Shown one piece after another: positions 38,725 to 51,900 of a stretch of DNA of 64,000 bases; position 1 is the first letter of the stretch, and each line of letters opens with the position of its first letter. Location: contig CAYNND010000005.1 of the NCBI GenBank assembly GCA_964398775.1, forward strand, positions 5,266-69,265, in the 5' to 3' direction. Source of the stretch: an uncultured Candidatus Saccharibacteria bacterium (GTDB taxonomy: Bacteria > Patescibacteriota > Minisyncoccia > Phycocordibacterales > UBA2100). The position numbers were made by a program, and so were the translations under genes. Below the pieces are notes generated by a model. It was not told the origin of the DNA. It did not search any database and worked only from the letters and a program-made list of their open reading frames with translations.

Positions 38725-39756
38725 TTAGAGTGCGACGTACTTACCGTCGTTTGTTCTGTTGAAAATTTCAGTATCCTGCAGGTTTACCAAAATTGTACCG
38801 TCTTTTACATAGCGCTCTCGCTTTACTCGGTCAATGATTTCCTTCTTCGAAAGAGGTCCATCTTTTTTCAAGATATCCTTGATCACCTCTTTGACAACAC
38901 CTTTAGAGTATCCCCACTCAGAGAGAGCGTAGAGTCCGCGTCCAACCAATACAAAGCGCTCGTCTTTAATCAGTTCGTTGTGGCATGTTGCTTCATGAGC
39001 CTTTCTGCCAAAGAGTTCTGATATTGAACGTGCAACTTCAGCAAAGTGCATTGGAGAACCGTGCCGTTTCAGTGAAAGATATGCCATGTCACGCATGTTT
39101 TTTACGCGCACGCCTGGTGCGTCAACTCTCCCCCATTCTCCAAGTTGGTTTCTAGAAATTTTCTTTGAGAGAGAAAGCCAGCGTCGTGCCGTTTCGTGTG
39201 TGTGGTGCTTTTTATCGAGATGTGTCAGGTCTTTGAGAAAGCGCGCGATAAGTTCTTGTTCTGGAACAAGATCATCATTTGAAAGTGAGCGGTACAAGCC
39301 CCTTAGTGCTGCATGCACAGAATCTGCAATGCCTTGGTCCGCATGCCAGCGATGGTTAAATTCAGGATCCTCCTTAAGTCTTTCAAATTCATTTCCAACT
39401 ACAAGAAGGAAGTGTATATGGTTTTGGAGTCCTTCATTCTTCGAAATTGCGTCGAGAAGTTCCTGCTCAGGCACGATGCCACCCATGTCTATAATGATGC
39501 CTGTCAGCTCTGTAAACACAGAAGAAACCTCTTTGTATGCTGGCGACGTTCTAATCGCGCCTATTGCTCTATTCTCTATCTGTCGGACTCGTTCACGGGT
39601 GATAGTGTATCGTGAGCCAATCGTCTCAAGGGTGTCTCGTTTTACAGTATTCCCAAGCCCGTAGCGCCCCGTTAGAACATCACGCTCACGCGAAGGAAGC
39701 ACCCCAAGGAGCTTTTTTGTGATCTGTTTTGGCTTGAATGTTACTGAAAACTGCAT
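38725..39756 (-). CDS. DNA-binding protein combining a sigma-70 region-4-like HTH (N-terminal) with a HARE-HTH-like domain (C-terminal)
   Basis: N-terminal LPSRERDVLTGRYGLGNTVKRDTLETIGSRYTITRERVRQIENRAIGAIR is a textbook sigma-70 region 4.2. C-terminal MHFAEVARSI…ELIKDERFVLVGRGLYALSEWGY matches the RpoE-delta / HARE-HTH pattern. Confidence 0.55.
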   Translation of the reverse strand: MQFSVTFKPKQITKKLLGVLPSRERDVLTGRYGLGNTVKRDTLETIGSRYTITRERVRQIENRAIGAIRTSPAYKEVSSVFTELTGIIIDMGGIVPEQELLDAISKNEGLQNHIHFLLVVGNEFERLKEDPEFNHRWHADQGIADSVHAALRGLYRSLSNDDLVPEQELIARFLKDLTHLDKKHHTHETARRWLSLSKKISRNQLGEWGRVDAPGVRVKNMRDMAYLSLKRHGSPMHFAEVARSISELFGRKAHEATCHNELIKDERFVLVGRGLYALSEWGYSKGVVKEVIKDILKKDGPLSKKEIIDRVKRERYVKDGTILVNLQDTEIFNRTNDGKYVAL

Positions 39757-39873: not shown

Positions 39874-42800
39874 TTATATTACGATATTGACGATCTTTCC
39901 CGGTATGACAATAACGCGTTTTGGGGTCTTCCCTTCCAACCATCGTTCTACTTCTTTGAGTGAGCGTGTACGAACACTTTCCTCAGTGGCATTCGGTGTA
40001 ACTGATACGGTACCTCTCAGTTTGCCGTTGACTTGAATTGCAATTGTAACTTCCTCTGATACGAGTTTTTTCTCAGACCACCGTGGCCATTTTTCAAGAT
40101 GAACTGAGCGCTTGTGACCGCGCAAATGCCAAAGTTCTTCCGTAATATGTGGTGCAAATGGTGCAAGTAATGTTATCAAGGTGTCAAATTGGGCGCTTGT
40201 TAATCCAGACTTGTCAGCGACATTGAGGAAACTCATGAGTGATGCAATTGCGGTATTAAATTTAAGTTCAGTCACACCCTCAGTCACTTTCTTGATTGTT
40301 TTGTGCATCTCACGCTCCACATCAGAAGTAGTTGTTGATGTGATTTTTGTTTGAAGTTTCCAAACACGCTCGAGGAATCTTCGGATACCTACAATTGCCT
40401 CTGGTGACCACGGATAGCTTCCTGGCTCGTTAAATGGACCTATGAATGCAAGATACATTCGGACTGTGTCTGCACCGAGACGTTTAACGACATCATCTGG
40501 GTCGATGACGTTTCCTTTGCTCTTACTCATTTTTTGCCCATCTGGACCCAAAATCAACCCTCGGTTCATTCTGCGCGTATATGGCTCCTTTTCCTTTGTT
40601 AATTTTAAGTCATACAAGGCCTTATGCCAGAATCGACTATAGAGCACGTGCATTGTTGTGTGTTCTGCACCACCTGAGTACAAATCAACTGGCAACCACT
40701 GTTGCAATTTCTTTGAAGCTGCGAACTCCTTTTTGTTTTTTGGGTCTGAATAGCGGAGGTAGTACCATGAAGAGCAGATAAACGTGTCAAATGTATCAGT
40801 TTCTCTCGTTGCTGCTTTTTTACAGTTTGGACATGTTGTCTTCACCCATTTTGTTGCCTTTGCTAGCGGTGATTTACCATCCCCAGTTGGTAGGTAATCA
40901 GTGACTCGAGGCAATTCAACTGGAAGATTCTTCTCTGGGACAGGAATGTAGCCACATGTATTACAGTGAATCATTGGAATTGGCACACCCCAATATCGCT
41001 GCCGAGACACAAGCCAGTCGCGGAGTCGGTATGTTTTTTTTGCGCGACCATACCGCTTTGTAATTTCTATTTTTGCTGTAGCCGAATGAACACCATCATG
41101 TTCTCCTGAATTCATGAGATAGCCATCGCCAGTATGTATATGGTGTTCCCCATTAAACTCTCGCCAGAGGGTATCTTTCTCTTTAAGCGTGATGAAATTG
41201 AGAACCTCTGACGCCGGTTTCCAAATATGCTCATGCTTAGCGAGTTCATCCGCAGCGATATGACCTTGTTCGTCATTATCAAGTTCAAAATAGAGGTATG
41301 TGAATTCAACGCGTCGATTTGTTTTCTTGAAGTTATGGTAAAACTCAACAGTGGCCTTGTCTCCAATTTGTCTCACAAAGCGTGCATTTTTATAACCACT
41401 TTCTTCAAGTATTTCTCGTTTTCCAGCAGTAACAGCATCCTCACCCTCTTCAATTCCTCCGGAGACAAATCCACGAATCGGGTGGCCTTTCCATGTCTGA
41501 CATAGATACTCATCTTTTTCCCAATGTTTTACAATGCACATAACTGCACTGCGACTTACGAACGGTTCATTTGGGTGGACTGCATCTGCACCTGATGTTT
41601 GTGTAACAAGGCGTGTCACTACTTGCCGTATCGGGAGTCCATGCGCGCGGGCAAACTCGTTGTCCCGCTCATCGTGTGCAGGTACCGCCATGATTGCTCC
41701 TGTACCGTACTGTGCGAGCACATAGTCACCTATAAACACAGGGATTTCCTCTCGAGTCGCTGGATTAATTGCGCGGATCCCCTTTAGTTGAACACCTGTC
41801 TTATCTTTATTCTCTTGCCGTTCAAGTTCTGTTTTTTGCTTAGTCTGGGCTCTGTATGCCTGCACTTCTGCTTCATTGTGTATAAGTCCTGAGTGTTGCA
41901 GTGCAGCTGTTACCCACTGGTGTTCAGGTGCCAGAACCATGTACGTAGCACCATGGAGAGTATCTGGCCGAGTTGTGAAGACTCTAATTGTTGGCGCAAT
42001 TGCCATAACCATATCTGGTTCACCCGCTTCTGAAGAAAAATGCGGTACTACACCAGTGCCTTTAATTAAGTGAGCACCGAGTGCCAACGCCCAAGCGTGT
42101 GCATCTTCTTGTGGGACAATGGTATCTGCCTCATCAGTGAGAACGACAAAGCCCTTTGAGTTCTGTTTTATTTTCTGTATATCGAACGGATGCTTACACG
42201 CTTTCGTAACAGAACGGCGCAACTTCTTATCAAGAAATACACCAGAATGTGGTGTTGCAATCAAAGAAACTCTGCCAACTTTTGAGCCGAGTTCGAGCGC
42301 TCTGAGTGCAACAAGTCCTCCAAATGATACTCCGACCAGTGCAGTTTTCTCGTTGAGGTTGCAATGTTTTTGTACATACGCAGCCTGCGTATCCAAATCA
42401 GGCTCTTGTGAATTTGGGAGCTCCGGTACGTCAACTGTGTATCCTCGCGCCTCTAATTGCTGTTTGAGCCACGGAAATGCATGACTCTTTGGTGAGCCAT
42501 TCCTTCCATGCAAAATAACAATTCGTGAACATGAGTCAACGCCTTTCAAAGGAAAATCGATTTCAGCACCTTCACTTCTCCCAATCCAATTTCGCTGAGA
42601 ATCCTTAATTGCCTCAGGCCATTGTAGTGGCTCGAGATCGTCAACGAGGCGATCGGCATACTTCGTAATTGCAATGTTCCATTGAGGCATGAGTCTCTGC
42701 TCCACTTTACTATTGCATCGCTCACACTCACCGCTCACCACTTGTTCATTCGCGAGCACTGTCTTACATGAGGGACACCAATTTGCTGCTGTGTCTTTTC

Positions 42801-43251
42801 GGTAGACCAAACCCTTCTTATGTAATTGTAAGAATAGCCACTGCGTCCACTTGTAGTATGCTGGGTCGCAGGTCACCACTTCTCGAGTCCAATCGAAAGA
42901 TGCACCCATTGAGGCAATCTGCTTCCTCATGTGCGCCATATTTTTGTAGGTCCATGTTCGTGGATTAATACCACGTTTGATTGCGGCGTTTTCAGCTGGA
43001 AGCCCAAATGCGTCAAAGCCAATCGGGTATAGAACATTACTTCCCTGCATGCGTCGTGCTCGTGCATACATGTCTGGCACTGCAAATGCGTACCAGTGGC
43101 CGACATGCAAATTACCAGATGGGTATGGAAACTCTACAAGTACATACTCATTTTTTTTCCCTTTTTCAGTATCCTTTACAGTGTAGAGGGCCTTCTTTTG
43201 CCATTCCTTTTGCCACTTCTTCTCTATTCGTAAATGATTGTAGTCCTTCAT
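39874..43251 (-). CDS. leuS: Leucyl-tRNA synthetase with two inserted hydrolase domains (YdeN-like alpha/beta hydrolase; Nudix), 1125 aa
   Basis: HIGH (NLHVGHW), KMSKS and the editing-domain landmarks TTRPDT and AHDERD are all present. There is a 180-aa insert with GVSFGG (GxSxG) between IGRSEG…DFPL and TTRPDT. There is a 140-aa insert with a perfect Nudix box GGIEEGEDAVTAGKREILEESGY between GLPIRQVV and YRLRDWLVSRQRYWG. Confidence 0.9.
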   Translation of the reverse strand: MKDYNHLRIEKKWQKEWQKKALYTVKDTEKGKKNEYVLVEFPYPSGNLHVGHWYAFAVPDMYARARRMQGSNVLYPIGFDAFGLPAENAAIKRGINPRTWTYKNMAHMRKQIASMGASFDWTREVVTCDPAYYKWTQWLFLQLHKKGLVYRKDTAANWCPSCKTVLANEQVVSGECERCNSKVEQRLMPQWNIAITKYADRLVDDLEPLQWPEAIKDSQRNWIGRSEGAEIDFPLKGVDSCSRIVILHGRNGSPKSHAFPWLKQQLEARGYTVDVPELPNSQEPDLDTQAAYVQKHCNLNEKTALVGVSFGGLVALRALELGSKVGRVSLIATPHSGVFLDKKLRRSVTKACKHPFDIQKIKQNSKGFVVLTDEADTIVPQEDAHAWALALGAHLIKGTGVVPHFSSEAGEPDMVMAIAPTIRVFTTRPDTLHGATYMVLAPEHQWVTAALQHSGLIHNEAEVQAYRAQTKQKTELERQENKDKTGVQLKGIRAINPATREEIPVFIGDYVLAQYGTGAIMAVPAHDERDNEFARAHGLPIRQVVTRLVTQTSGADAVHPNEPFVSRSAVMCIVKHWEKDEYLCQTWKGHPIRGFVSGGIEEGEDAVTAGKREILEESGYKNARFVRQIGDKATVEFYHNFKKTNRRVEFTYLYFELDNDEQGHIAADELAKHEHIWKPASEVLNFITLKEKDTLWREFNGEHHIHTGDGYLMNSGEHDGVHSATAKIEITKRYGRAKKTYRLRDWLVSRQRYWGVPIPMIHCNTCGYIPVPEKNLPVELPRVTDYLPTGDGKSPLAKATKWVKTTCPNCKKAATRETDTFDTFICSSWYYLRYSDPKNKKEFAASKKLQQWLPVDLYSGGAEHTTMHVLYSRFWHKALYDLKLTKEKEPYTRRMNRGLILGPDGQKMSKSKGNVIDPDDVVKRLGADTVRMYLAFIGPFNEPGSYPWSPEAIVGIRRFLERVWKLQTKITSTTTSDVEREMHKTIKKVTEGVTELKFNTAIASLMSFLNVADKSGLTSAQFDTLITLLAPFAPHITEELWHLRGHKRSVHLEKWPRWSEKKLVSEEVTIAIQVNGKLRGTVSVTPNATEESVRTRSLKEVERWLEGKTPKRVIVIPGKIVNIVI

Positions 43252-43296: not shown

Positions 43297-44340
43297 TTAT
43301 GTTTTTTTTGAGTAGTGTGTCCACTGGACGAGGTTCCAGAGTATGCGCATACCAACGTTTGCATTCCATTCAGAATCATTTGCTTGTGGCGAAACTTCAT
43401 TAACATCAAAACCAATTATCTTTTTACCTGATTTCGCGACTGCTCGAATGAGAAATACCGCTTGGTCGAATGAAAGGCCTCCAGGGACTGGTGTACCTGT
43501 GCCTGGGCACAGTGATGCCTCAAGTCCATCAATGTCAAAACTTATATATACTTTTTCTGGAAGTTGTTGAACTATTTTGGCAACTGACATCTCCCATGTA
43601 GAACCGCAAAATGACTCAGCTTTCAAATCAGTATCAAAAAAAGTACTAATACGGTTACTGTTCTGTACGATATATTCTCGCTCTCCTGGTGAGTAATCAC
43701 GAATACCGACCTGAACTAATTTCTTAACAGAAGATACATGTGCAAGAACGTTCCACATTATTGATGCATGTGAGTACGTAAAACCCTCATATGCTTCTCG
43801 TAAGTCGCAGTGTGCGTCAATTTGCAAAATGCCAAATTCAGAGTGCACATCGCCGAGTGCTCGGATAAGCCCATATGGAGTACTGTGGTCGCCACCTATC
43901 AACCCTACTAATTTGCCTTGTGCAATGTGATATGCGGACTCTTCATGAATTTCATCATGGAATACTTCACACGCTATATTGATTTCGGCCAGAGCTTTTG
44001 CGTTCCCTTTTCTGCCAGATGATATGTCCTGTATATATCGCTCTGCCTTAGATCTTAATTGCTGACCACGCTTCAAGACATTGTGTTTTTCTTGCAGCGG
44101 AGTCATGTATACACCTACTTTCCAAGAATCACCACCATGCGCCTCATGATAATAGTCAATTTGGGGTGATGCAGCGTAAATCGCCTCAGGTCCTTTTTGT
44201 GTGCCACCACCATAAGAAACAGTAACACCCCACGGAGCAGGTATAAGTACTATGCTTGCATCAGATTCTGCGGTTGAAAGACCGAAAATACCAGAGTTTG
44301 TTTGCGCGACGGCGTTTGGGTCAAATGGTTTTGAGTTCAT
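43297..44340 (-). CDS. speB: Ureohydrolase of the arginase/agmatinase family (probable agmatinase)
   Basis: GGDHS, DAHCD and SFDIDGLE…PGTGTP metal-binding motifs. The context includes arginine decarboxylase and carboxyspermidine genes. Confidence 0.75.
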   Translation of the reverse strand: MNSKPFDPNAVAQTNSGIFGLSTAESDASIVLIPAPWGVTVSYGGGTQKGPEAIYAASPQIDYYHEAHGGDSWKVGVYMTPLQEKHNVLKRGQQLRSKAERYIQDISSGRKGNAKALAEINIACEVFHDEIHEESAYHIAQGKLVGLIGGDHSTPYGLIRALGDVHSEFGILQIDAHCDLREAYEGFTYSHASIMWNVLAHVSSVKKLVQVGIRDYSPGEREYIVQNSNRISTFFDTDLKAESFCGSTWEMSVAKIVQQLPEKVYISFDIDGLEASLCPGTGTPVPGGLSFDQAVFLIRAVAKSGKKIIGFDVNEVSPQANDSEWNANVGMRILWNLVQWTHYSKKT

Positions 44341-44349
44341 GTGTATATC

Positions 44350-45576
44350 TTACCCCATTCGTGACTTAAAATCTTCATATGTAAACTCTCTGAGTGTTTC
44401 AAGTTCTCCATTTTCATGAAGAAATACAATTGATGGATGTTTAACGCCATTAAACATAGTAATCTTTATGAGTGTGTATTGAATTGCGTGCTCAAATACA
44501 ACTGCATCACCTACTTTTAGTGGTTTATCAAATGAATAGAGTGCATGCGTCATATCACCTGCAATGCAGGTGCTACCACCAAATCTATATACATGCTGCT
44601 GCGTAGCGTTATTGTCGTCAGTATCAATTCGCTTTGCATTTCGCACCTCTAGCTGAAGATCTTTACTTACAAAAAAGTCTGTAAGATGATTTTCAAATGA
44701 CATATTTAGAATCGGTATTTTATATGGGACATCATCTCGCTCAACAATATCCAAAACGCGAGCGACAAGTGTACCGACATGCCATGCTATTGCTGCGCCT
44801 GGCTCAAGATGAATCTCTACATTATATTTTGCAGCAAATGTGTTGAGTATGTGTATGAGTTTTTTCCTATCGTATGAATCATCAGTTATTTTTTGTCCAC
44901 CGCCAAAATTAACCCACTCCATGGCGCTACAATACTCACCAAAGTTCGATTCAATTTTACTAAGTGCTTGCTCAAGGTCTTGCGCATCCTTTTCAAAGAA
45001 GAGATGGAAATGTAGACCGCTTATACCCTCGAGTGCCTTTGCATCTTCAGTCAACGCTCGCTTAAATTCAGAAATGCGGATCCCAAGTCGTGAGCCCGGC
45101 GCGCAGGGATTCCAAAGCTCGCCGTGACCATCTGCGTCAAGAATTTCCGGGTTAATTCTCAAACCAAAACTTCTTAATTTACCGGTTGTTCGTGCGTAAG
45201 TAAGAGCTTGGTCTTTAAACTGTTTCCATTGAGAGAATGAGTTGAAGATGATAGTACTGCAGTAATTTAAAATTTCTGAAAATTCCTGTGTGTTATATGC
45301 GGGCGCAAACATATGAACGTTCTCGCCAAAATGCTCGTAGGCAAGTCGCGCTTCGTGCAGTGAACTTACCTCTGCGCCTTGAAGATACTCTCGTTCAATC
45401 GGGAAAAGCTGCCAGGGACTCCATGCCTTCAAGGCGTGCAGTATGGTTGCTCCGGTAGCATCATGAATTTCTTTCAATACTGAAAGATTATGACGGAGAA
45501 TATGTTCTTCTATTACAAAGGCAGGTGTATCTACTTGTGATGCGATGAGTCGTGATGGTGGTCTTCGTAGTTCCAT
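44350..45576 (-). CDS. nspC: Carboxynorspermidine/carboxyspermidine decarboxylase
   Basis: About 400 aa. The C-terminal block …ITMFNGVKHPSIVFLHENGELETLREFTYEDF is characteristic of CANSDC. Alanine-racemase-fold N-domain. Confidence 0.75.
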   Translation of the reverse strand: MELRRPPSRLIASQVDTPAFVIEEHILRHNLSVLKEIHDATGATILHALKAWSPWQLFPIEREYLQGAEVSSLHEARLAYEHFGENVHMFAPAYNTQEFSEILNYCSTIIFNSFSQWKQFKDQALTYARTTGKLRSFGLRINPEILDADGHGELWNPCAPGSRLGIRISEFKRALTEDAKALEGISGLHFHLFFEKDAQDLEQALSKIESNFGEYCSAMEWVNFGGGQKITDDSYDRKKLIHILNTFAAKYNVEIHLEPGAAIAWHVGTLVARVLDIVERDDVPYKIPILNMSFENHLTDFFVSKDLQLEVRNAKRIDTDDNNATQQHVYRFGGSTCIAGDMTHALYSFDKPLKVGDAVVFEHAIQYTLIKITMFNGVKHPSIVFLHENGELETLREFTYEDFKSRMG

Positions 45577-45578
45577 GG

Positions 45579-46829
45579 CTATATTTTCTCGGGCAATGGT
45601 TTAAAATCAACAACTTCAAATGGCAAACCATTCTTCGATACAATTTCAAGAAAAGGCTCTGGATCAAGCTGCTCCATGTTATATACTCCAGCGCCACTCC
45701 ATACCCCTGTCATGAGCATGTATGCCGCAGACATTGCGGGGACACCCGTTGTATACGAAATTGCTTGTGAGCCAACTTCCTTAAAGCATGCTGCATGGTC
45801 GCAGACATTGTATATGTACTTTGTCGCTACTGTGCCGTCCTTTTCACCAGTAATAATGCATCCAATATTTGTCTTCCCGCTGTAGTTCGTTGCGAGTGAC
45901 GCTGGGTCAGGGAGCAGTGCTTTCAAAAATTCCATTGGAACAATCTTAACAATCTTCCCATTGAGTTTGAATGGTATCGGCTTAATACCTGAAATGCCAA
46001 TACTCTCCATTACCCTGAGATGGTTGAGATAATTTTCCCCAAAAGTCATCCAGAAACGCATGCGTTTCAGGCCAGGCAAGTTTTTTGCAAGCGACTCCAT
46101 TTCTTCATGGAAGAGCAGATAGCTTTCTTTGGGTCCGATTTGTGGATAGTTAAAAGCAAAATGAATGCTGCCAGTGTTCATGACTGGAGGTGTATACACC
46201 CAAGTCCCATCCCTGAAATGCTTCACTTCCTGTGTGACCTCACGAATATTAATTTCTGGATTGAAATTTGTAGCAAATGATTTGTCATGACTTCCAGCGT
46301 TTGCATCAAGAATGTCTACGGACTCAATTGTTGTGAAATACTTCTTGAGTGCGTACGCGCAATACATATTTGTAACTCCTGGATCGAAACCTGCGCCCAA
46401 AACAGCCATAAGACCAGCTTTTTTAAACTGAGTATGTTTTGCCCACTGGAGTTTGTACTCAAATTTTGCCTCGTCTTTCGGCTCATAGTTTGCTGTGTCA
46501 ATGTAATGGACTTTTGTTTTCAGGCATGCATCCATTATGGTCAGGTCTTGATATGGAAGTGCCAAGTTCAACACAAGGTACGGCTTTACTTTTTTTATGA
46601 GCGCGACCAGTTGCGGCACCTTGTCAGCATCAACTTGGTGTGTAGTTATTGCAACATCCCATCGTTTTTTAACATCTTTTTTTATTGCATCAGCCTTTGC
46701 TTTTGTTCGCGTTGCAACATGAATTTTTGTAAAAACTTTAGAATTCATTGCGCATTTGTGAATCGCAACTGATGCAACACCTCCTGCGCCAATTATAAGA
46801 ATTGTCCCATTATTTTTCTGAGTTTTCAT
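45579..46829 (-). CDS. Carboxynorspermidine/carboxyspermidine dehydrogenase (saccharopine dehydrogenase-like)
   Basis: N-terminal ILIIGAGGVASVAIHK Rossmann motif. 416-aa length and saccharopine-DH-like C-domain. Adjacent to the CANSDC gene. Confidence 0.7.
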   Translation of the reverse strand: MKTQKNNGTILIIGAGGVASVAIHKCAMNSKVFTKIHVATRTKAKADAIKKDVKKRWDVAITTHQVDADKVPQLVALIKKVKPYLVLNLALPYQDLTIMDACLKTKVHYIDTANYEPKDEAKFEYKLQWAKHTQFKKAGLMAVLGAGFDPGVTNMYCAYALKKYFTTIESVDILDANAGSHDKSFATNFNPEINIREVTQEVKHFRDGTWVYTPPVMNTGSIHFAFNYPQIGPKESYLLFHEEMESLAKNLPGLKRMRFWMTFGENYLNHLRVMESIGISGIKPIPFKLNGKIVKIVPMEFLKALLPDPASLATNYSGKTNIGCIITGEKDGTVATKYIYNVCDHAACFKEVGSQAISYTTGVPAMSAAYMLMTGVWSGAGVYNMEQLDPEPFLEIVSKNGLPFEVVDFKPLPEKI

Positions 46830-46849
46830 ATGAATAGTATATACGATAA

Positions 46850-47932
46850 TTATAAATATTTTTTGGCATGCAAAAGTTCTGCGATAAGAACTCCACCACC
46901 CGCTGCACCTCTAATCGTGTTATGCGAGAGCCCAACAAATTTCCACTGGAATAAAGGGTCTTCTCTGAGCCTACCTACGGTCACTGCCATTGCTTTATCT
47001 GAGTCTCTATCAAGTCTTGTCTGCGGCCTATTTTCTTCACTTTTATAATGAATAGCCTGCCGCGGAGCAAGTGGAAGTTGTAATCGTTGTGGTTCACCGG
47101 TAAACGATTCCCATGCTTTTAGTATCTCATCGCGACTTGGCTTCTGTTCGCATTCAAACGAAACGCACGCCATATGACCGTCAATGGTCGGAACACGGTT
47201 GCAGTGCGCTGAAATTGCAAATGAGTCGTCATAGATAAATGACGTGTCACCAATTGTTCCAAAGATTTTTCTTGGCTCTAGTTCAGACTTCTGTTCCTCG
47301 CCTCCAATATAAGGGATAACATTATCCAGAATGTCATATGAAGAGACGCCCGGATGCCCTGCCCCAGAAATTGATTGCATTGTAGTGACAAATACTTTTC
47401 GTACTTTGAATGTTTTGTGAAGCGCTGCAAGCGGTGCGGTATAGCTTTGAATTGAGCAGTTTGGCTTAACGACAATAAATCCTTTTGCCCACCCTCTGTT
47501 CTTTTGCTGTATTGGGATCATTTCAAGATGCTCAGGATTAACCTCAGGTATAATCATTGGAACATCCGACGTATGCCTGTGCGTTGAAGCATTTGAAACC
47601 ACTGGAATACCTGCTGCTGCATATTGCTCTTCCCACTCCTTCGCTATTGGTGTATCCAGCGCTGAAAATACAAAATCACATGATGCAGCGCAGGTCTGTA
47701 GATCGTCAACTGTGTGCACCTGTAACCCAGAGATACTCTCAGGGATATGTGCCTGCATGTGCCAGCGACCCTGTACAGCTTCCGCATACGTTTTCCCAGC
47801 TGAAGACTGACTTGCTACAAGATATGTAACCTCAAACCATTCATGGTTAGTAAGGAGCGCTATATACTGCTGCCCCACCATCCCAGTCGCACCAAGAATA
47901 CCAACTCGAAGTTTTTTGTTCATACTATGCAA
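46850..47932 (-). CDS. asd: Aspartate-semialdehyde dehydrogenase
   Basis: LRVGILGATGMVGQQ N-terminal motif; active-site Cys region (…SNCSI…-like NCSIQS). Confidence 0.85.
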   Translation of the reverse strand: MHSMNKKLRVGILGATGMVGQQYIALLTNHEWFEVTYLVASQSSAGKTYAEAVQGRWHMQAHIPESISGLQVHTVDDLQTCAASCDFVFSALDTPIAKEWEEQYAAAGIPVVSNASTHRHTSDVPMIIPEVNPEHLEMIPIQQKNRGWAKGFIVVKPNCSIQSYTAPLAALHKTFKVRKVFVTTMQSISGAGHPGVSSYDILDNVIPYIGGEEQKSELEPRKIFGTIGDTSFIYDDSFAISAHCNRVPTIDGHMACVSFECEQKPSRDEILKAWESFTGEPQRLQLPLAPRQAIHYKSEENRPQTRLDRDSDKAMAVTVGRLREDPLFQWKFVGLSHNTIRGAAGGGVLIAELLHAKKYL

Positions 47933-49235
47933 TTAAAGTTTTATGTAATGCAATCACCGATGACTGTGCGGCATCCTCCTTCACAATAAACGTTATACTG
48001 ACACCTGTCGCAGATTCTGAAATCATGCGTACTGGGACATTCATTTTTTCGAAAGTAGTGCAAGCAGTTTTCATGACGCTGGATACGTGCATACCTGCCC
48101 CTACAATGCATATAACCGCACAATTGTGGGTTACTTCAACTGCACCGATTGACCTGAGCGACTCTACAAGCGCTGAGGTATGAGCAGATGATGCATAACT
48201 GCATGATACACTCACTACAGAAGTTGCGATTACATCAACAGCAACCTCATGCTCTTCAAAGCATCTGAACATGCGTGCCATGAGGCCTGTACCGTCAAAG
48301 AAATCCGGACTATGCACGGTGACCACGGTTGTACCTTTCTTTGAGGTTATCGCCTTTGCCATTTTAGTATGGTTTTTCGGAGTTTGAGCTTGTATCAAAG
48401 TTCCTGTTCCTTGAGGTTTGAATGTGTTCAATACTCGCACTGGCACACCTTTTTCCATTGCTGGGAGCATTGTTTTTGGATGAAGTACTTTTGCACCAAA
48501 GTAGGCTAGTTCACCGGCTTCTTCATATTGCAATGCTGGTATAAGTCGAGCAGATGGAACAACACGAGGGTCAGTTGAGAGGACTCCGTCAACTTCTTTC
48601 CATATCTGGATCTCAGCGGCAGAGATTGAGCCACCGATAATTGCCGTAGTGTAATCAGAACCACCACGTCCAAGGGTAGTGACTGAACCTTTTTTTGTTT
48701 TCCCAATAAAACCTGTTACAACAGGTACTTTTGTGTATGCTTGGAAAAAAGACTTGATTGCTGCAGGTGTTTCTGAAAGTGGCTCAGAGTTTCCGTGCAC
48801 ATTTGTTGTAAGCATGCCGATATCCCATGCGTCATACGCTATTGAATCAACACCTCTTTTTTGAAGAAGTGCAGCCACAATCCGAGCCGATAATCTCTCA
48901 CCGAATGATACAAAGCGATCTCGAACCGCAAGCGATTGAGTTACATTTTTTGATGATAGTTTTTTCAGCTCATTCAGTAAAGGCTCGACACCATCGCAAG
49001 ACAGTTCGAGTTGTTCGATAATGTTCGCATGCCTCTGTGCCAATAAAGACACCTTATGAAGGCGTGCAGTGACTGAACGTTCATGGTATATCTCCAAAAG
49101 TGCATCTGTTACACCTGCAACCGCAGAAACAACCACAATTGGTTGCTGAGCAATTCGCGCTTTAATTATTTTAACAACGCTCTGGATACTTTCAGCAGTA
49201 CCAACAGATGTGCCGCCAAACTTCATTACTATCAT
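47925..49235 (-). CDS. lysC: Aspartate kinase
   Basis: MIVMKFGGTSVGTAESI amino-acid-kinase N-terminus; C-terminal tandem ACT domains. The ORF is open to 49265 (GTG); the first ATG is at 49235. Confidence 0.85.
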   Translation of the reverse strand: MIVMKFGGTSVGTAESIQSVVKIIKARIAQQPIVVVSAVAGVTDALLEIYHERSVTARLHKVSLLAQRHANIIEQLELSCDGVEPLLNELKKLSSKNVTQSLAVRDRFVSFGERLSARIVAALLQKRGVDSIAYDAWDIGMLTTNVHGNSEPLSETPAAIKSFFQAYTKVPVVTGFIGKTKKGSVTTLGRGGSDYTTAIIGGSISAAEIQIWKEVDGVLSTDPRVVPSARLIPALQYEEAGELAYFGAKVLHPKTMLPAMEKGVPVRVLNTFKPQGTGTLIQAQTPKNHTKMAKAITSKKGTTVVTVHSPDFFDGTGLMARMFRCFEEHEVAVDVIATSVVSVSCSYASSAHTSALVESLRSIGAVEVTHNCAVICIVGAGMHVSSVMKTACTTFEKMNVPVRMISESATGVSITFIVKEDAAQSSVIALHKTLIA

Positions 49236-49413
49236 AGAATCAACAATTACCCTGTAATGACTCACTGATGTCAGTGAGTTGTTGTGGAGCTATGCTCCGT
49301 CTTTCTATGCAGCGCTTCTGACGACACGAAGAAACTTCAGTCGGAATGATCGTGCTCTATAAACTCTAGCATGTAATTCACGGATTACAATCCTTGTGTG
49401 ATACACTTTCACC

Positions 49414-50502: not shown

Positions 50503-51900
50503 ATGAAACGCGCACGTGCATCAGCACACAAACATGCGAAGAATGGTTTCAGAAAGATGTGGAAACTCGGCATAGAAGAGGTTAACACAGGGATGTTTGA
50601 TATAAGTGATGATGGTTCACTTGTTGTTCGAGAGGGAAACTTCCAATACAACATCCATGACATAGTAAAGAAGTACGGCACTTCAACCGAAATCCTCTTC
50701 CCTACGATCATTGAAAATCGAGTTCGAGACATGATTGAGACATTCAATGCCTACATTAAAGTGCTCGGATACAAAGGCAAATACCACTATCATTACCCAA
50801 TGAAGGTGAATCAGAACAAGGAATTCGTTCTTCCTGCAGTTGCTGAAGGCGCAAACCTTGAAGTTGCCTCTGCAAACGAATTATTTTTAGTGAAGCGAAT
50901 GATTGAACAGAACAAATTTACGAACAGTATTCGTGTGCTCTGCAATGGACCGAAAACAGAACGTTATATTGAACTTATCGAAGAGTTGAAATCTAAAGGA
51001 CTTGTTGTTATACCTATTATCGAAGACCATAGTGAGCTTGAGCGAATGAGGCGTTTCAAAGGTGAGGTTGGCATACGTGTTGACTTAAACATTAAAGTCG
51101 ACAGTCATTGGGATAAACGATTTAACCGATTTGGCTTTACTGAAGAAGAGCTTGTTTCTCTAGGTACAATACGAAACCTCTCAATACTTCACTACCATAT
51201 TTCAAGCCAGATTGAGCATATAGATGGCCTTATACGTCCGATGCAGCGAGCAATTGAACTGTACGCAAAGATGCGCCTAAAAAACCCTGGTCTCGACTCA
51301 CTTGATATTGGCGGTGGTGCTGGTATTCCATACAATAAGAACAAGCAACTCTATAACACCAAAAATCTAATACAACGAATTGTTAAGACGGCAAAGGCTA
51401 CTTGCGATAAATTGAATGTAAAACATCCGACACTCATCTCAGAATGGGGACGATATGCTGTTGCACCTGCACAAATAACTATATACAAAGTTATCGCTGA
51501 GAAAGAGATTGCACAGAAGGATAAGCATAAATGGTATGTGGTTGATGGGAGTTTTATGAATGATCTTACAGACACATGGGCATTGCACCAAAAGTGGCAT
51601 GTTGTACCAGTAAACAGTATGAAACACCACAAACTCCAGCATACATGGCTTGCTGGGAGCTCGTGTGACAGTGATGATAAATACACTGCGGGCGGCACAT
51701 CTATACCACTACCTAAAATAAGCGATACTGATAATGGACTCTATATAGCCATCCTCGACACAGGTGCGTATCAAGACTCGCTTGCGTCACATCACTGCAT
51801 GCTCTCGTCACCTCTTAAGCTTCTTGCAAGTAATGGTGAAATTAAGGTTATACGCAAACGCGAAGCTCCTGAAGATGTGGGGAGACAATTTGGATGGTAG
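50503..51900 (+). CDS. speA: Fold-III PLP-dependent decarboxylase, probable biosynthetic arginine decarboxylase (compact SpeA-like)
   Basis: PLP-lysine block YPMKVNQNKEFV; HYHISSQI matches the SpeA HFHLGSQ motif; DIGGGAGIPY glycine-rich loop. Confidence 0.65.
   Translation: MKRARASAHKHAKNGFRKMWKLGIEEVNTGMFDISDDGSLVVREGNFQYNIHDIVKKYGTSTEILFPTIIENRVRDMIETFNAYIKVLGYKGKYHYHYPMKVNQNKEFVLPAVAEGANLEVASANELFLVKRMIEQNKFTNSIRVLCNGPKTERYIELIEELKSKGLVVIPIIEDHSELERMRRFKGEVGIRVDLNIKVDSHWDKRFNRFGFTEEELVSLGTIRNLSILHYHISSQIEHIDGLIRPMQRAIELYAKMRLKNPGLDSLDIGGGAGIPYNKNKQLYNTKNLIQRIVKTAKATCDKLNVKHPTLISEWGRYAVAPAQITIYKVIAEKEIAQKDKHKWYVVDGSFMNDLTDTWALHQKWHVVPVNSMKHHKLQHTWLAGSSCDSDDKYTAGGTSIPLPKISDTDNGLYIAILDTGAYQDSLASHHCMLSSPLKLLASNGEIKVIRKREAPEDVGRQFGW

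Follow-up and report, generated by a model that had tools for sequence, protein, structure and literature searches.

NadM-Nudix is a bifunctional NMN adenylyltransferase/ADP-ribose pyrophosphatase, in which a Nudix domain is covalently joined to a HIGH-motif enzyme of nucleotidyltransferase fold that yields an adenylylated product. To our knowledge, it is very unusual for the editing domain of a bacterial aminoacyl-tRNA synthetase to contain accessory enzyme domains. A curated precedent for a class I synthetase with an extra enzyme domain is IleRS with an N-acetyltransferase domain (NF040702, ileS_w_GNAT), known here by its model name. A search of the openly accessible literature found no paper on a Nudix domain or an alpha/beta hydrolase inserted in LeuRS, and an NCBIfam scan of the protein described below returned no comparable curated LeuRS+Nudix model. 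LeuRS+Nudix sequences are already public and auto-annotated; what is new here is the interpretation and the survey.

The host protein, encoded by a bacterium of the Patescibacteria (CPR), is a complete bacterial-type housekeeping LeuRS with two inserted domains. Its leuS open reading frame (1125 aa plus stop) lies at 39874..43251 on the minus strand of the window, i.e., of the whole stretch of 64,000 nt that was analysed, and all features given below lie on this strand. In the NCBIfam scan, the whole protein scored 937.9 bits against TIGR00396 (leuS_bact; equivalog cut-off 548.4). The synthetic motifs HVGH (aa 49-52) and KMSKS (aa 907-911) are intact, as are the CP1 editing motifs TTRPDT (aa 426-431) and AHDERD (aa 525-530), which are conserved across the family. 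All domains fold in the full-length AF2 model (mean pLDDT 85.9), at a pTM of only 0.63. The N-terminal catalytic half (aa 1-238; 42538..43251) aligns with T. thermophilus LeuRS 1-239 and finishes in the first CP1 strand (…AEIDFPLKGV). The CP1 editing core (aa 422-547; 41611..41988; PF13603 at aa 421-549) aligns with T. thermophilus 243-364 and carries the Thr-rich TTRPDT motif and the aspartate of AHDERD. Alignment and Pfam assign the remaining residues (aa 709-1125; 39877..41127) to the C-terminal segment of CP1 (G.L.NSG..DG), the second half of the catalytic fold, the anticodon-binding domain and the C-terminal domain; aa 709-903 align with T. thermophilus 380-580 and aa 907-1125 with 637-876, and PF08264 matches aa 979-1091. 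No counterpart of T. thermophilus 581-636, the leucine-specific domain, was found in this alignment. As this domain varies among bacterial LeuRSs, its absence does not exclude membership. Two further synthetase genes in the window, one of GluRS type (489 aa) and one of class II Asp/Asn/Lys type (448 aa), match nothing but their own synthetase families in Pfam, in line with a restriction of the Nudix insert to LeuRS.

The Nudix hydrolase domain occupies aa 548-708 (41128..41610), as supported by Pfam, alignment, AF2 and fold matches. A preliminary description of this DNA had placed it at 41152-41574, i.e., aa 560-700; this span is part of the insert, but the full insert is larger. The same description had the insert replace a short linker of canonical LeuRS, and indeed 161 residues stand in place of 15 in T. 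thermophilus LeuRS (365-379), a net gain of about 146 aa. PF00293 (NUDIX) matched aa 569-683 with 40.9 bits (cut-off 21.1, E 2.6e-10). AF2 modelled the insert confidently (pLDDT 95) as a Nudix fold of alpha/beta/alpha type, in which a loop-helix-loop carries the box. This fold is complete, and both of its ends rejoin CP1 strands in the AF2 models. The cassette sits in a CP1 surface loop between the motifs …AHDERD..FA..LPIR.VV and G.L.NSG. It was initially thought to lie between the editing core and the catalytic domain; it does follow the editing core but is still inside CP1, as isolated CP1 constructs in the PDB (2ajg, 5agr, 4k47) run 34-52 residues past the insertion point. A lead of about 20 aa at the N-terminus of the Nudix domain (G.DA.R…ER) is specific to the family.

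An artefact has a negligible probability, be it a chimeric assembly, a selfish insertion such as an intein, or a decaying gene. In a few relatives DUF559 endonuclease-like domains are found at one of the insertion sites (site 1), a hint that these sites can be targets of mobile DNA. However, the gene is a single uninterrupted ORF, the identical protein occurs in independent assemblies (P0001, P0388; Logan and NCBI), hundreds of orthologs share the junctions and the insert differs little in GC content (0.427) from the rest of the gene, all of which speaks against an artefact. Mis-assembly and a pseudogene are ruled out by the intact ORF, the identical independent protein and the shared junctions. 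An intein or homing element is likewise ruled out, because the protein has no intein or homing-endonuclease Pfam match and the insert is a complete Nudix fold.

The Nudix box GGIEEGEDAVTAGKREILEESGY (aa 598-620; 41392..41460, a few bases off the 41390-41466 given earlier) fits GX5EX7REUXEEXGU. The match had been called perfect; every specified residue is present, but the last 'U' is Tyr instead of Ile, Leu or Val. This terminal Tyr is characteristic of the family, with Y620 present in 107 of 120 relatives. Across 120 relatives, the other box positions are kept as G598 in 115, E604 in 104, R612 in 107, E613 in 112, E616 in 110, E617 in 112 and G619 in 112. We counted glutamates by position, since pattern matching misses free-standing boxes with Lys for Arg and Asp or Gln for the first Glu, substitutions that most free-standing copies have. 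All three REUXEE glutamates are present in 269 of 277 post-CP1 copies, i.e., at the insert's own site, in 23 of 23 pre-CP1 copies and in 140 of 146 free-standing copies. Orthologs that lack the box or have altered glutamates, named earlier as a sign of a degenerate fold, are thus the exception, and the claim of a canonical, conserved Nudix domain within LeuRS holds, given the Pfam score, the AF2 model and the kept glutamates. The putative metal-binding and catalytic helix is conserved, and from the conservation of E613, E616 and E617 we infer that the domain is enzymatically active. It could alternatively be a non-catalytic module, i.e., a structural, tRNA-binding or ligand-sensing Nudix fold like NrtR, CFIm25 or the mitoribosomal Nudix-fold proteins. 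We consider this very improbable, as the three helix glutamates and their flanking glycines are near-invariant in all positional classes at 25-60% overall identity, which points to selection on catalysis.

An aromatic pair conserved in relatives, F637-Y638 (41338..41343), lies 17-18 residues past the box, at the putative 'X-loop' position. In the relatives' alignment, 86 sequences have F and 27 have Y at position 637; at position 638, Y occurs in 74 and F in 33. The X-loop has been located about 17 aa downstream of the Nudix box, and a Tyr there has been linked to ApnA activity (motif of Dunn et al.; PMC5389931, which also names NADM_SYNY3). F637-Y638 aligns, in a weak alignment, with the 'YWY' of the Aquifex Ap4A hydrolase.

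Sequence-profile and fold searches found diadenosine-polyphosphate hydrolases and RppH as the probable nearest characterised structures, at 15-20% identity. ApnA hydrolases and RppH rank near the top by small margins, and the best match is itself uncharacterised. The early proposal of Ap4A as a substrate gains from ApnA hydrolases being among these closest structures, but the curated RppH models NF001936 and NF001938 scored only 19-21 bits in the NCBIfam scan, far below their cut-offs of 116-118. E. coli RppH entries occupy most of the top Foldseek ranks, and the decapping enzymes AvrM14 and Dcp2 are among the sequence and structure matches. Moreover, CP1 touches the tRNA acceptor end during editing, as established by LeuRS structures. 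Like RppH, the domain might hence process the 5' terminus of tRNA(Leu) bound to LeuRS, or of another RNA (5'-triphosphate, Np4 or NAD cap), exploiting the nearness of CP1 to the acceptor end. We find action on RNA ends improbable: besides the low scores of the RppH models, RppH and Ap4A hydrolases form one structural neighbourhood within which the matches do not discriminate, and the CP1 geometry is not shared by free-standing copies or by those in the C-terminal half of LeuRS. Also, there is no sign that tRNAs here keep 5'-triphosphates, and the window has no tRNA gene (tRNA and Rfam scans of its 64,000 nt gave no match).

The Nudix subfamily occurs in at least 338 species-level genomes, mostly Patescibacteria. 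An exhaustive HMMER search returned just 297 representatives at E<=1e-3, and the long ones are nearly all LeuRS. A survey of fused versus free-standing versions, as suggested in the preliminary description, found both: the domain is always within leuS in the best 80 loci, and about 35 of the top 150 representatives are free-standing, with no host other than LeuRS in this set. Within LeuRS the subfamily occupies at least three sites, with one to three copies present. For pre-CP1 copies, the nearest relatives are post-CP1 copies of other proteins; those in the C-terminal half most resemble the free-standing type. The sequence comparison supports the view that LeuRS has captured this subfamily repeatedly and independently at several sites. 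Of seven free-standing genes that we looked up, two are direct upstream neighbours of leuS (P0142 stops 2 bp short of it, P0279 is about 580 bp away) and five are not near leuS. A functional tie to LeuRS is supported by the near-restriction of the subfamily to LeuRS and small free-standing genes, by the several independent entry sites and by the two of seven genes abutting leuS.

In LeuRSs with 86-88% core identity, the cassette is missing or has given way to a nucleotidyltransferase at its site, with identical boundaries. A natural linker lacking the cassette reads SGGASLPYTG in P0082, and an insert-free leuS of 807 aa has the same synteny, i.e., leuS followed by Sigma70_r4/HARE-HTH and YceG. 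As close relatives are without the Nudix insert or carry a nucleotidyltransferase at its site, it appears to be a labile accessory cassette. The coupling to LeuRS proposed at the outset thus draws on distribution, entry sites and the neighbouring free-standing genes, and is tempered by a domain that close relatives can dispense with or swap.

Related LeuRSs hold further domains at the same hot spots, among them HAD, Ham1/ITPase (E 1e-54), an ANT(2'')-like nucleotidyltransferase, DUF559 and an alpha/beta hydrolase. Both these unrelated domains and the loss and swap of the cassette fit a passenger role. The insert would then be an active Nudix enzyme of general nucleotide-pool sanitation or salvage, acting e.g., on non-canonical NTPs, to which LeuRS, being insertion-tolerant, essential and constitutively expressed, gives expression and stability and no substrate. 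Many free-standing homologs lie in unrelated neighbourhoods, and the free-standing genes were auto-annotated as MutT-like by JGI, which also agrees with such a role. However, insertion tolerance alone leaves unexplained why LeuRS is the only host among the top 150 representatives; IleRS and ValRS have CP1 domains comparable to that of LeuRS. Nor does it account for the repeated capture at different LeuRS sites or for the free-standing copies abutting leuS. We regard a mere passenger as possible but doubtful.

A second inserted domain lies 126 residues upstream of the Nudix insert in the same protein, at the N-terminal edge of CP1 (insert 1, aa 239-421; 41989..42537), and replaces T. thermophilus LeuRS 240-242. 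It is an alpha/beta serine hydrolase of the YdeN/RBBP9 family: PF06821 matched aa 244-410 (E 1.1e-10, 42.1 bits, cut-off 22), and the closest PDB sequences are YdeN 1uxo (E 1e-11) and RBBP9. Its pLDDT in the full-length AF2 model is about 87-97, and S309 of the GxSxG motif and H404 are invariant in 65 sequences. The preliminary description was silent on insert 1, on the breadth of the architecture and on the existing auto-annotation. A role of either insert in anti-phage defence was dropped, as PADLOC gave no match for them. Leu and Ile are among the hydrophobic amino acids with a free amine that human RBBP9 traps (PMC8866121).

The two inserted hydrolases might together form an enlarged, LeuRS-dedicated apparatus for proofreading and by-product clearance, built into CP1. 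The Nudix domain would break down adenylylated compounds that arise as by-products at the synthetic site (e.g., Ap3A/Ap4A, possibly mis-activated aminoacyl-adenylates), and the RBBP9-like hydrolase would cleave alpha-aminoacyl (thio)esters, e.g., mischarged tRNA ends or homocysteine thiolactone; the recurrent capture of one Nudix family at different LeuRS sites would then reflect selection for physical coupling. We think this unlikely. Aminoacyl-adenylates are not known to be Nudix substrates.

We favour, with middling confidence, the reading that the Nudix insert is an active pyrophosphohydrolase tethered to LeuRS, with an accessory function and a nucleoside-polyphosphate substrate, most likely of ApnA type. 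An independently folding Nudix domain would have been inserted as a cassette into a CP1 surface loop of a housekeeping LeuRS, where it would act most likely on diadenosine or other dinucleoside polyphosphates (Ap3A-Ap6A). Their cleavage would return ATP or ADP and AMP to a nucleotide-salvaging host; CPR bacteria are expected to salvage nucleotides. As the cassette has been lost or replaced in close relatives, LeuRS itself would work without it. The Ap4A rationale does not account for LeuRS being the sole host, because LeuRS is not known as one of the strongest producers of Ap4A. Self-resistance to adenylate-mimic LeuRS inhibitors of the agrocin-84 type (PMC5059758) was considered and not ranked.

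One dedicated Nudix subfamily thus appears to have been captured by LeuRS repeatedly across a large part of Patescibacteria, with its catalytic residues kept. Should its substrates be nucleotides derived from LeuRS, the domain would physically connect aminoacylation with (di)nucleotide turnover or alarmone control in a new way, and would bear on the economy of ultra-small, nucleotide-scavenging bacteria. If it is a passenger only, the CP1 hot spots would show how an essential enzyme can naturally exchange domains as cassettes, which is useful for protein engineering.

Compared with known systems, the host shares with bacterial LeuRS (TIGR00396; T. thermophilus 1H3N, E. coli 3ZGZ/4AQ7) the full-length match, the HIGH (HVGH) and KMSKS motifs, the Thr-rich motif and catalytic Asp of CP1 and the anticodon-binding and C-terminal domains. 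It differs from these enzymes in its two additional enzyme domains (183 aa and 161 aa), which lie within CP1 or at its edge, and from T. thermophilus LeuRS in the missing leucine-specific domain. The Nudix insert shares its fold, the box and, probably, an aromatic residue at the X-loop position with T. thermophilus Ndx1 (1VC8), M. tuberculosis Rv2985 (9CXX), Aquifex Ap4A hydrolase (3I7U), Chlamydia CT771 (4ILQ) and E. coli RppH (4S2Y). In contrast to these, it is embedded in another enzyme and has its own N-terminal lead of about 20 aa and Tyr as the final box residue, at 15-20% identity. The free-standing E. faecalis protein 2AZW, a structural-genomics entry with 17% identity, is described only as a MutT/nudix family protein and hence gives no help in substrate assignment. 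Free-standing Patescibacteria Nudix genes (about 155-190 aa; P0142, P0279, P0314) belong to the same subfamily, with 30-65% identity, and share the N-terminal lead as well as the GY ending. Some directly precede leuS, in the synteny seen in the window; unlike the inserted domain, they are separate polypeptides, mostly not adjoining leuS. The IleRS of NF040702 is another synthetase with another passenger fold. NadM-Nudix is an end-to-end fusion of the ADP-ribose clade unrelated to translation, whereas the Nudix domain of LeuRS is an internal insertion.

The leucyl-tRNA synthetase (LeuRS) gene of the window, leuS, is a single long ORF of 1125 aa (39874–43251, minus strand), within which the Nudix insert is encoded. 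The protein is a complete and intact bacterial-type LeuRS. It scored 937.9 bits against NCBIfam TIGR00396 (cut-off 548.4), matched the Pfam class I catalytic, LeuRS editing (PF13603) and anticodon-binding domains, and contains the motifs HVGH (aa 49–52) and KMSKS (aa 907–911), the Thr-rich editing motif TTRPDT (aa 426–431) and AHDERD (aa 525–530), all encoded on the minus strand. Identical proteins (P0001 and P0388) came from independent assemblies. Two Pfam domains foreign to LeuRS, each above gathering score, lie within the minus-strand frame, i.e., Ser_hydrolase (PF06821, aa 244–410, E 1.1e-10) and NUDIX (PF00293, aa 569–683, E 2.6e-10). In the alignment with Thermus thermophilus LeuRS (1H3N), residues 1–238, 422–547, 709–903 and 907–1125 corresponded to 1–239, 243–364, 380–580 and 637–876, respectively. 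Insert 1 (aa 239–421, 183 aa) hence takes the place of three residues and insert 2, the Nudix domain (aa 548–708, 161 aa), that of 15. Unlike the canonical enzyme, the window's LeuRS lacks the leucine-specific domain (T. thermophilus 581–636); the gap lies between aa 903 and 907 (about 40530–40545, minus strand), with KMSKS directly after …LILGPDGQ. A full-length AlphaFold2 model reached a mean pLDDT of 85.9, with both inserts at about 87–97; its pTM was 0.63, and the relative placement of the domains is therefore uncertain. Two short ORFs in alternative frames, of 84 aa (41112–41366, minus) and 92 aa (41227–41505, plus), cover parts of the Nudix-coding region; lying wholly within the conserved leuS frame, they are most likely spurious.

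The preliminary description had placed a Nudix domain at 41152–41574, i.e., aa 560–700, and the Pfam match and the exchange of 15 residues for 161 bear this out; the observation was right and is robust. The insert does follow the core of the editing domain CP1, as had been stated, but it does not lie between CP1 and the catalytic core. CP1 constructs deposited on their own (PDB 2ajg, 5agr, 4k47) continue for 34–52 residues past its position, so the Nudix domain is inside CP1, between the …AHDERD..FA..LPIR.VV and G.L.NSG motifs. The Nudix box, GGIEEGEDAVTAGKREILEESGY, spans aa 598–620 (nt 41392–41460, minus strand); it fits GX5EX7REUXEEXGU with Tyr as the final hydrophobic residue; the coordinates first assigned to it were a few bases off and lacked the strand. 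A relaxed box pattern had a single match among the window's six reading frames and none in any of 200 shuffles, the match thus being more than chance. AlphaFold2 on aa 545–712 (41 aligned homologs) gave the strand and helix order of a Nudix fold, with pLDDT 95 and pTM 0.88, both ends forming short strands that rejoin CP1. Foldseek matches of this model in the PDB were exclusively Nudix proteins, and a family profile searched against PDB sequences placed Chlamydia CT771 and the lupin and Aquifex Ap4A hydrolases on top (E ~1e-8). The insert folds independently, and its catalytic helix is conserved.

Among the 120 closest LeuRSs (54–100% identity), 111 carried both inserts, and the box residues were retained in most, i.e., G598 in 115, E604 in 104, R612 in 107, E613 in 112, E616 in 110, E617 in 112 and G619 in 112. 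Loss of the box or of its glutamates in orthologs had been named as a sign of a degenerate fold. Among 474 Nudix domain copies, however, all three glutamates of the REUXEE helix were kept in 269 of 277 copies after CP1, the site found in the window, in 23 of 23 before CP1 and in 140 of 146 free-standing ones. In the free-standing copies the box Arg was usually Lys (98/146) and the first box Glu usually Asp or Gln. The conservation pattern points to selection on catalysis. Box positions 7 and 15 covary: Glu at 7 goes with Arg at 15, and most free-standing copies (P0270–P0386) combine Asp or Gln at 7 with Lys or Ala at 15.

Searched exhaustively with HMMER, 1.84 billion representatives yielded only 297 matches to the insert at E≤1e-3. 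Among the 150 best, every long protein was a LeuRS or a LeuRS fragment, and about 35 were free-standing proteins of 154–200 aa. When one genome for each GTDB species was scanned, at least 338 genomes carried the subfamily. Both fused and free-standing forms exist: the domain lay within a LeuRS ORF in all of the best 80 of these loci, and free-standing homologs are common (286 clusters). The subfamily's distribution is LeuRS-specific. MAGs labelled as Patescibacteria, as Paceibacterota or as one of their candidate phyla (Kaiser-, Nomura-, Vogel-, Adler-, Jorgensen-, Taylor-, Colwell- and Zambryskiibacteria) made up most of the best 80 loci; many were labelled Saccharibacteria, and a few archaeal or gammaproteobacterial. 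Five Nanoarchaeota- or Woesearchaeota-labelled MAGs (L006, L008, L026, L035, L069) had a Nudix-bearing bacterial-type LeuRS, whose C-terminal part was often matched over a shorter length; three of them (L008, L026, L035) had the serine hydrolase insert too. The five cases reflect either mis-binning or gene transfer from CPR to DPANN. Some Gammaproteobacteria- or Saccharibacteria-labelled matches may likewise be taxonomic mislabels. The sequences are already public and auto-annotated, under names such as 'class I tRNA ligase family protein', 'alpha/beta fold hydrolase' and 'NUDIX domain-containing protein', and full-text literature searches found no published description of the architecture, which is clade-wide, modular and previously deposited.

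Within LeuRS, the Nudix subfamily most commonly sits after the CP1 core; in some proteins it precedes CP1, singly or as a tandem pair, occupies both sites together, or lies in the C-terminal half. Up to three copies occur per LeuRS, as in the 1559-aa ORF L072, where the serine hydrolase is accompanied by three Nudix domains; further extreme forms are L062 (1305 aa), P0121 and P0122, and tandem pairs before CP1 occur with one copy after it. In a nearest-neighbour analysis, copies from different sites were interleaved: those before CP1 were often closest to post-CP1 copies of other proteins (55–65% identity), and those in the C-terminal half to the free-standing type. Such interleaving implies that the domain entered LeuRS by repeated captures or transpositions rather than in one ancient event. 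Loss and replacement are recent. P0113 and P0094 are LeuRSs without the cassette at 86–88% core identity to Nudix-bearing ones, P0058 has an ANT(2'')-like nucleotidyltransferase in its place with identical boundaries, and insert-free LeuRSs have linkers of 2–10 aa. Besides the ANT(2'')-like enzyme, the three hot spots of related LeuRSs (P0058, P0215, P0126, P0094, P0169, P0191, P0149, P0174, P0140; loci L016, L048, L059) also house HAD hydrolases, DUF559 endonuclease-like domains and Ham1/ITPase (E 1e-54 in P0149). A recurrent inserted domain of about 125–145 aa containing '…PGFWNEY…' (L030 aa 245–387, L033 aa 242–384, P0246 aa 239–364, P0240 aa 552–681) had no significant Pfam match, and P0134, P0196 and P0269 hold further inserts without an assigned domain. 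A labile cassette and mixed cargo argue that the Nudix function would be accessory, and they keep alive a passenger model, in which the domain simply rides in LeuRS.

Against mere carriage, three features together argue for a real functional connection: a host range almost confined to LeuRS, repeated capture, and in some cases a position next to leuS. For seven free-standing homologs we examined the surrounding genes. P0142 stops 2 bp before leuS, which at that locus encodes a Nudix insert as well; about 580 bp separate P0279 from a downstream leuS of 807 aa that is free of inserts; and the other five are located elsewhere in their genomes. At both loci, as in the window, leuS is followed by a Sigma70_r4/HARE-HTH gene (window: ~345 aa, 38725–39756, minus) and then YceG, a synteny conserved also in distant relatives (L084, P0142 locus). 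The window's other synthetases, a GluRS-type (489 aa) and a class II Asp/Asn/Lys-type enzyme (448 aa), had Pfam matches only to their own families. Almost all long ORFs of the window are on the minus strand. Immediately upstream of leuS (43297–49265, minus) lie genes for an arginase-family protein, a carboxynorspermidine-decarboxylase-like PLP enzyme, a saccharopine-dehydrogenase-like protein, aspartate-semialdehyde dehydrogenase and aspartate kinase, with a further Orn/Arg decarboxylase nearby (50503–51900, plus); the run resembles an alternative polyamine pathway together with the enzymes supplying its aspartate semialdehyde. No tRNA genes or Rfam families at gathering score were found in the 64-kb window.

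Insert 1, absent from the preliminary description, is a YdeN/RBBP9-type α/β serine hydrolase (nt 41989–42537, minus strand) at the N-terminal edge of CP1. It matched Bacillus subtilis YdeN (1uxo; E 1e-11) and, less strongly, RBBP9 (E about 5e-4). Of the 120 closest relatives, 118 carry it, and its nucleophile S309 (GxSxG) and H404 were invariant. Human RBBP9 removes hydrophobic amino acids with a free amine, trapped acyl adducts including Leu/Ile, and according to the authors cleaves their amide, ester or thioester bonds (PMC8866121); a reference cited in PMC7730578 also lists it as a valacyclovir-activating enzyme. By analogy, we speculate that insert 1 might be an auxiliary deacylase, an α-aminoacyl hydrolase within the editing domain, and that both inserts might for this reason extend LeuRS quality control.

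The preliminary description had read the fusion as coupled clearance or regulation of synthetase by-products, which is plausible, albeit unproven; for aminoacyl-adenylate cleavage, we know of no Nudix precedent. We infer that the Nudix insert would be an active pyrophosphohydrolase tethered to LeuRS. Its substrate can be suggested only weakly, because RppH models scored far below cut-off for the window's protein, the top structural match is uncharacterised and the nearest characterised relatives, ApnA hydrolases, share 15–20% identity with the insert. Dinucleoside polyphosphates would yet be the likeliest substrates, given these relatives and a conserved aromatic pair, F637-Y638, located 17–18 residues past the box, which would be the 'X-loop' position; a Tyr in this loop has been correlated with activity on ApnA (PMC5389931).
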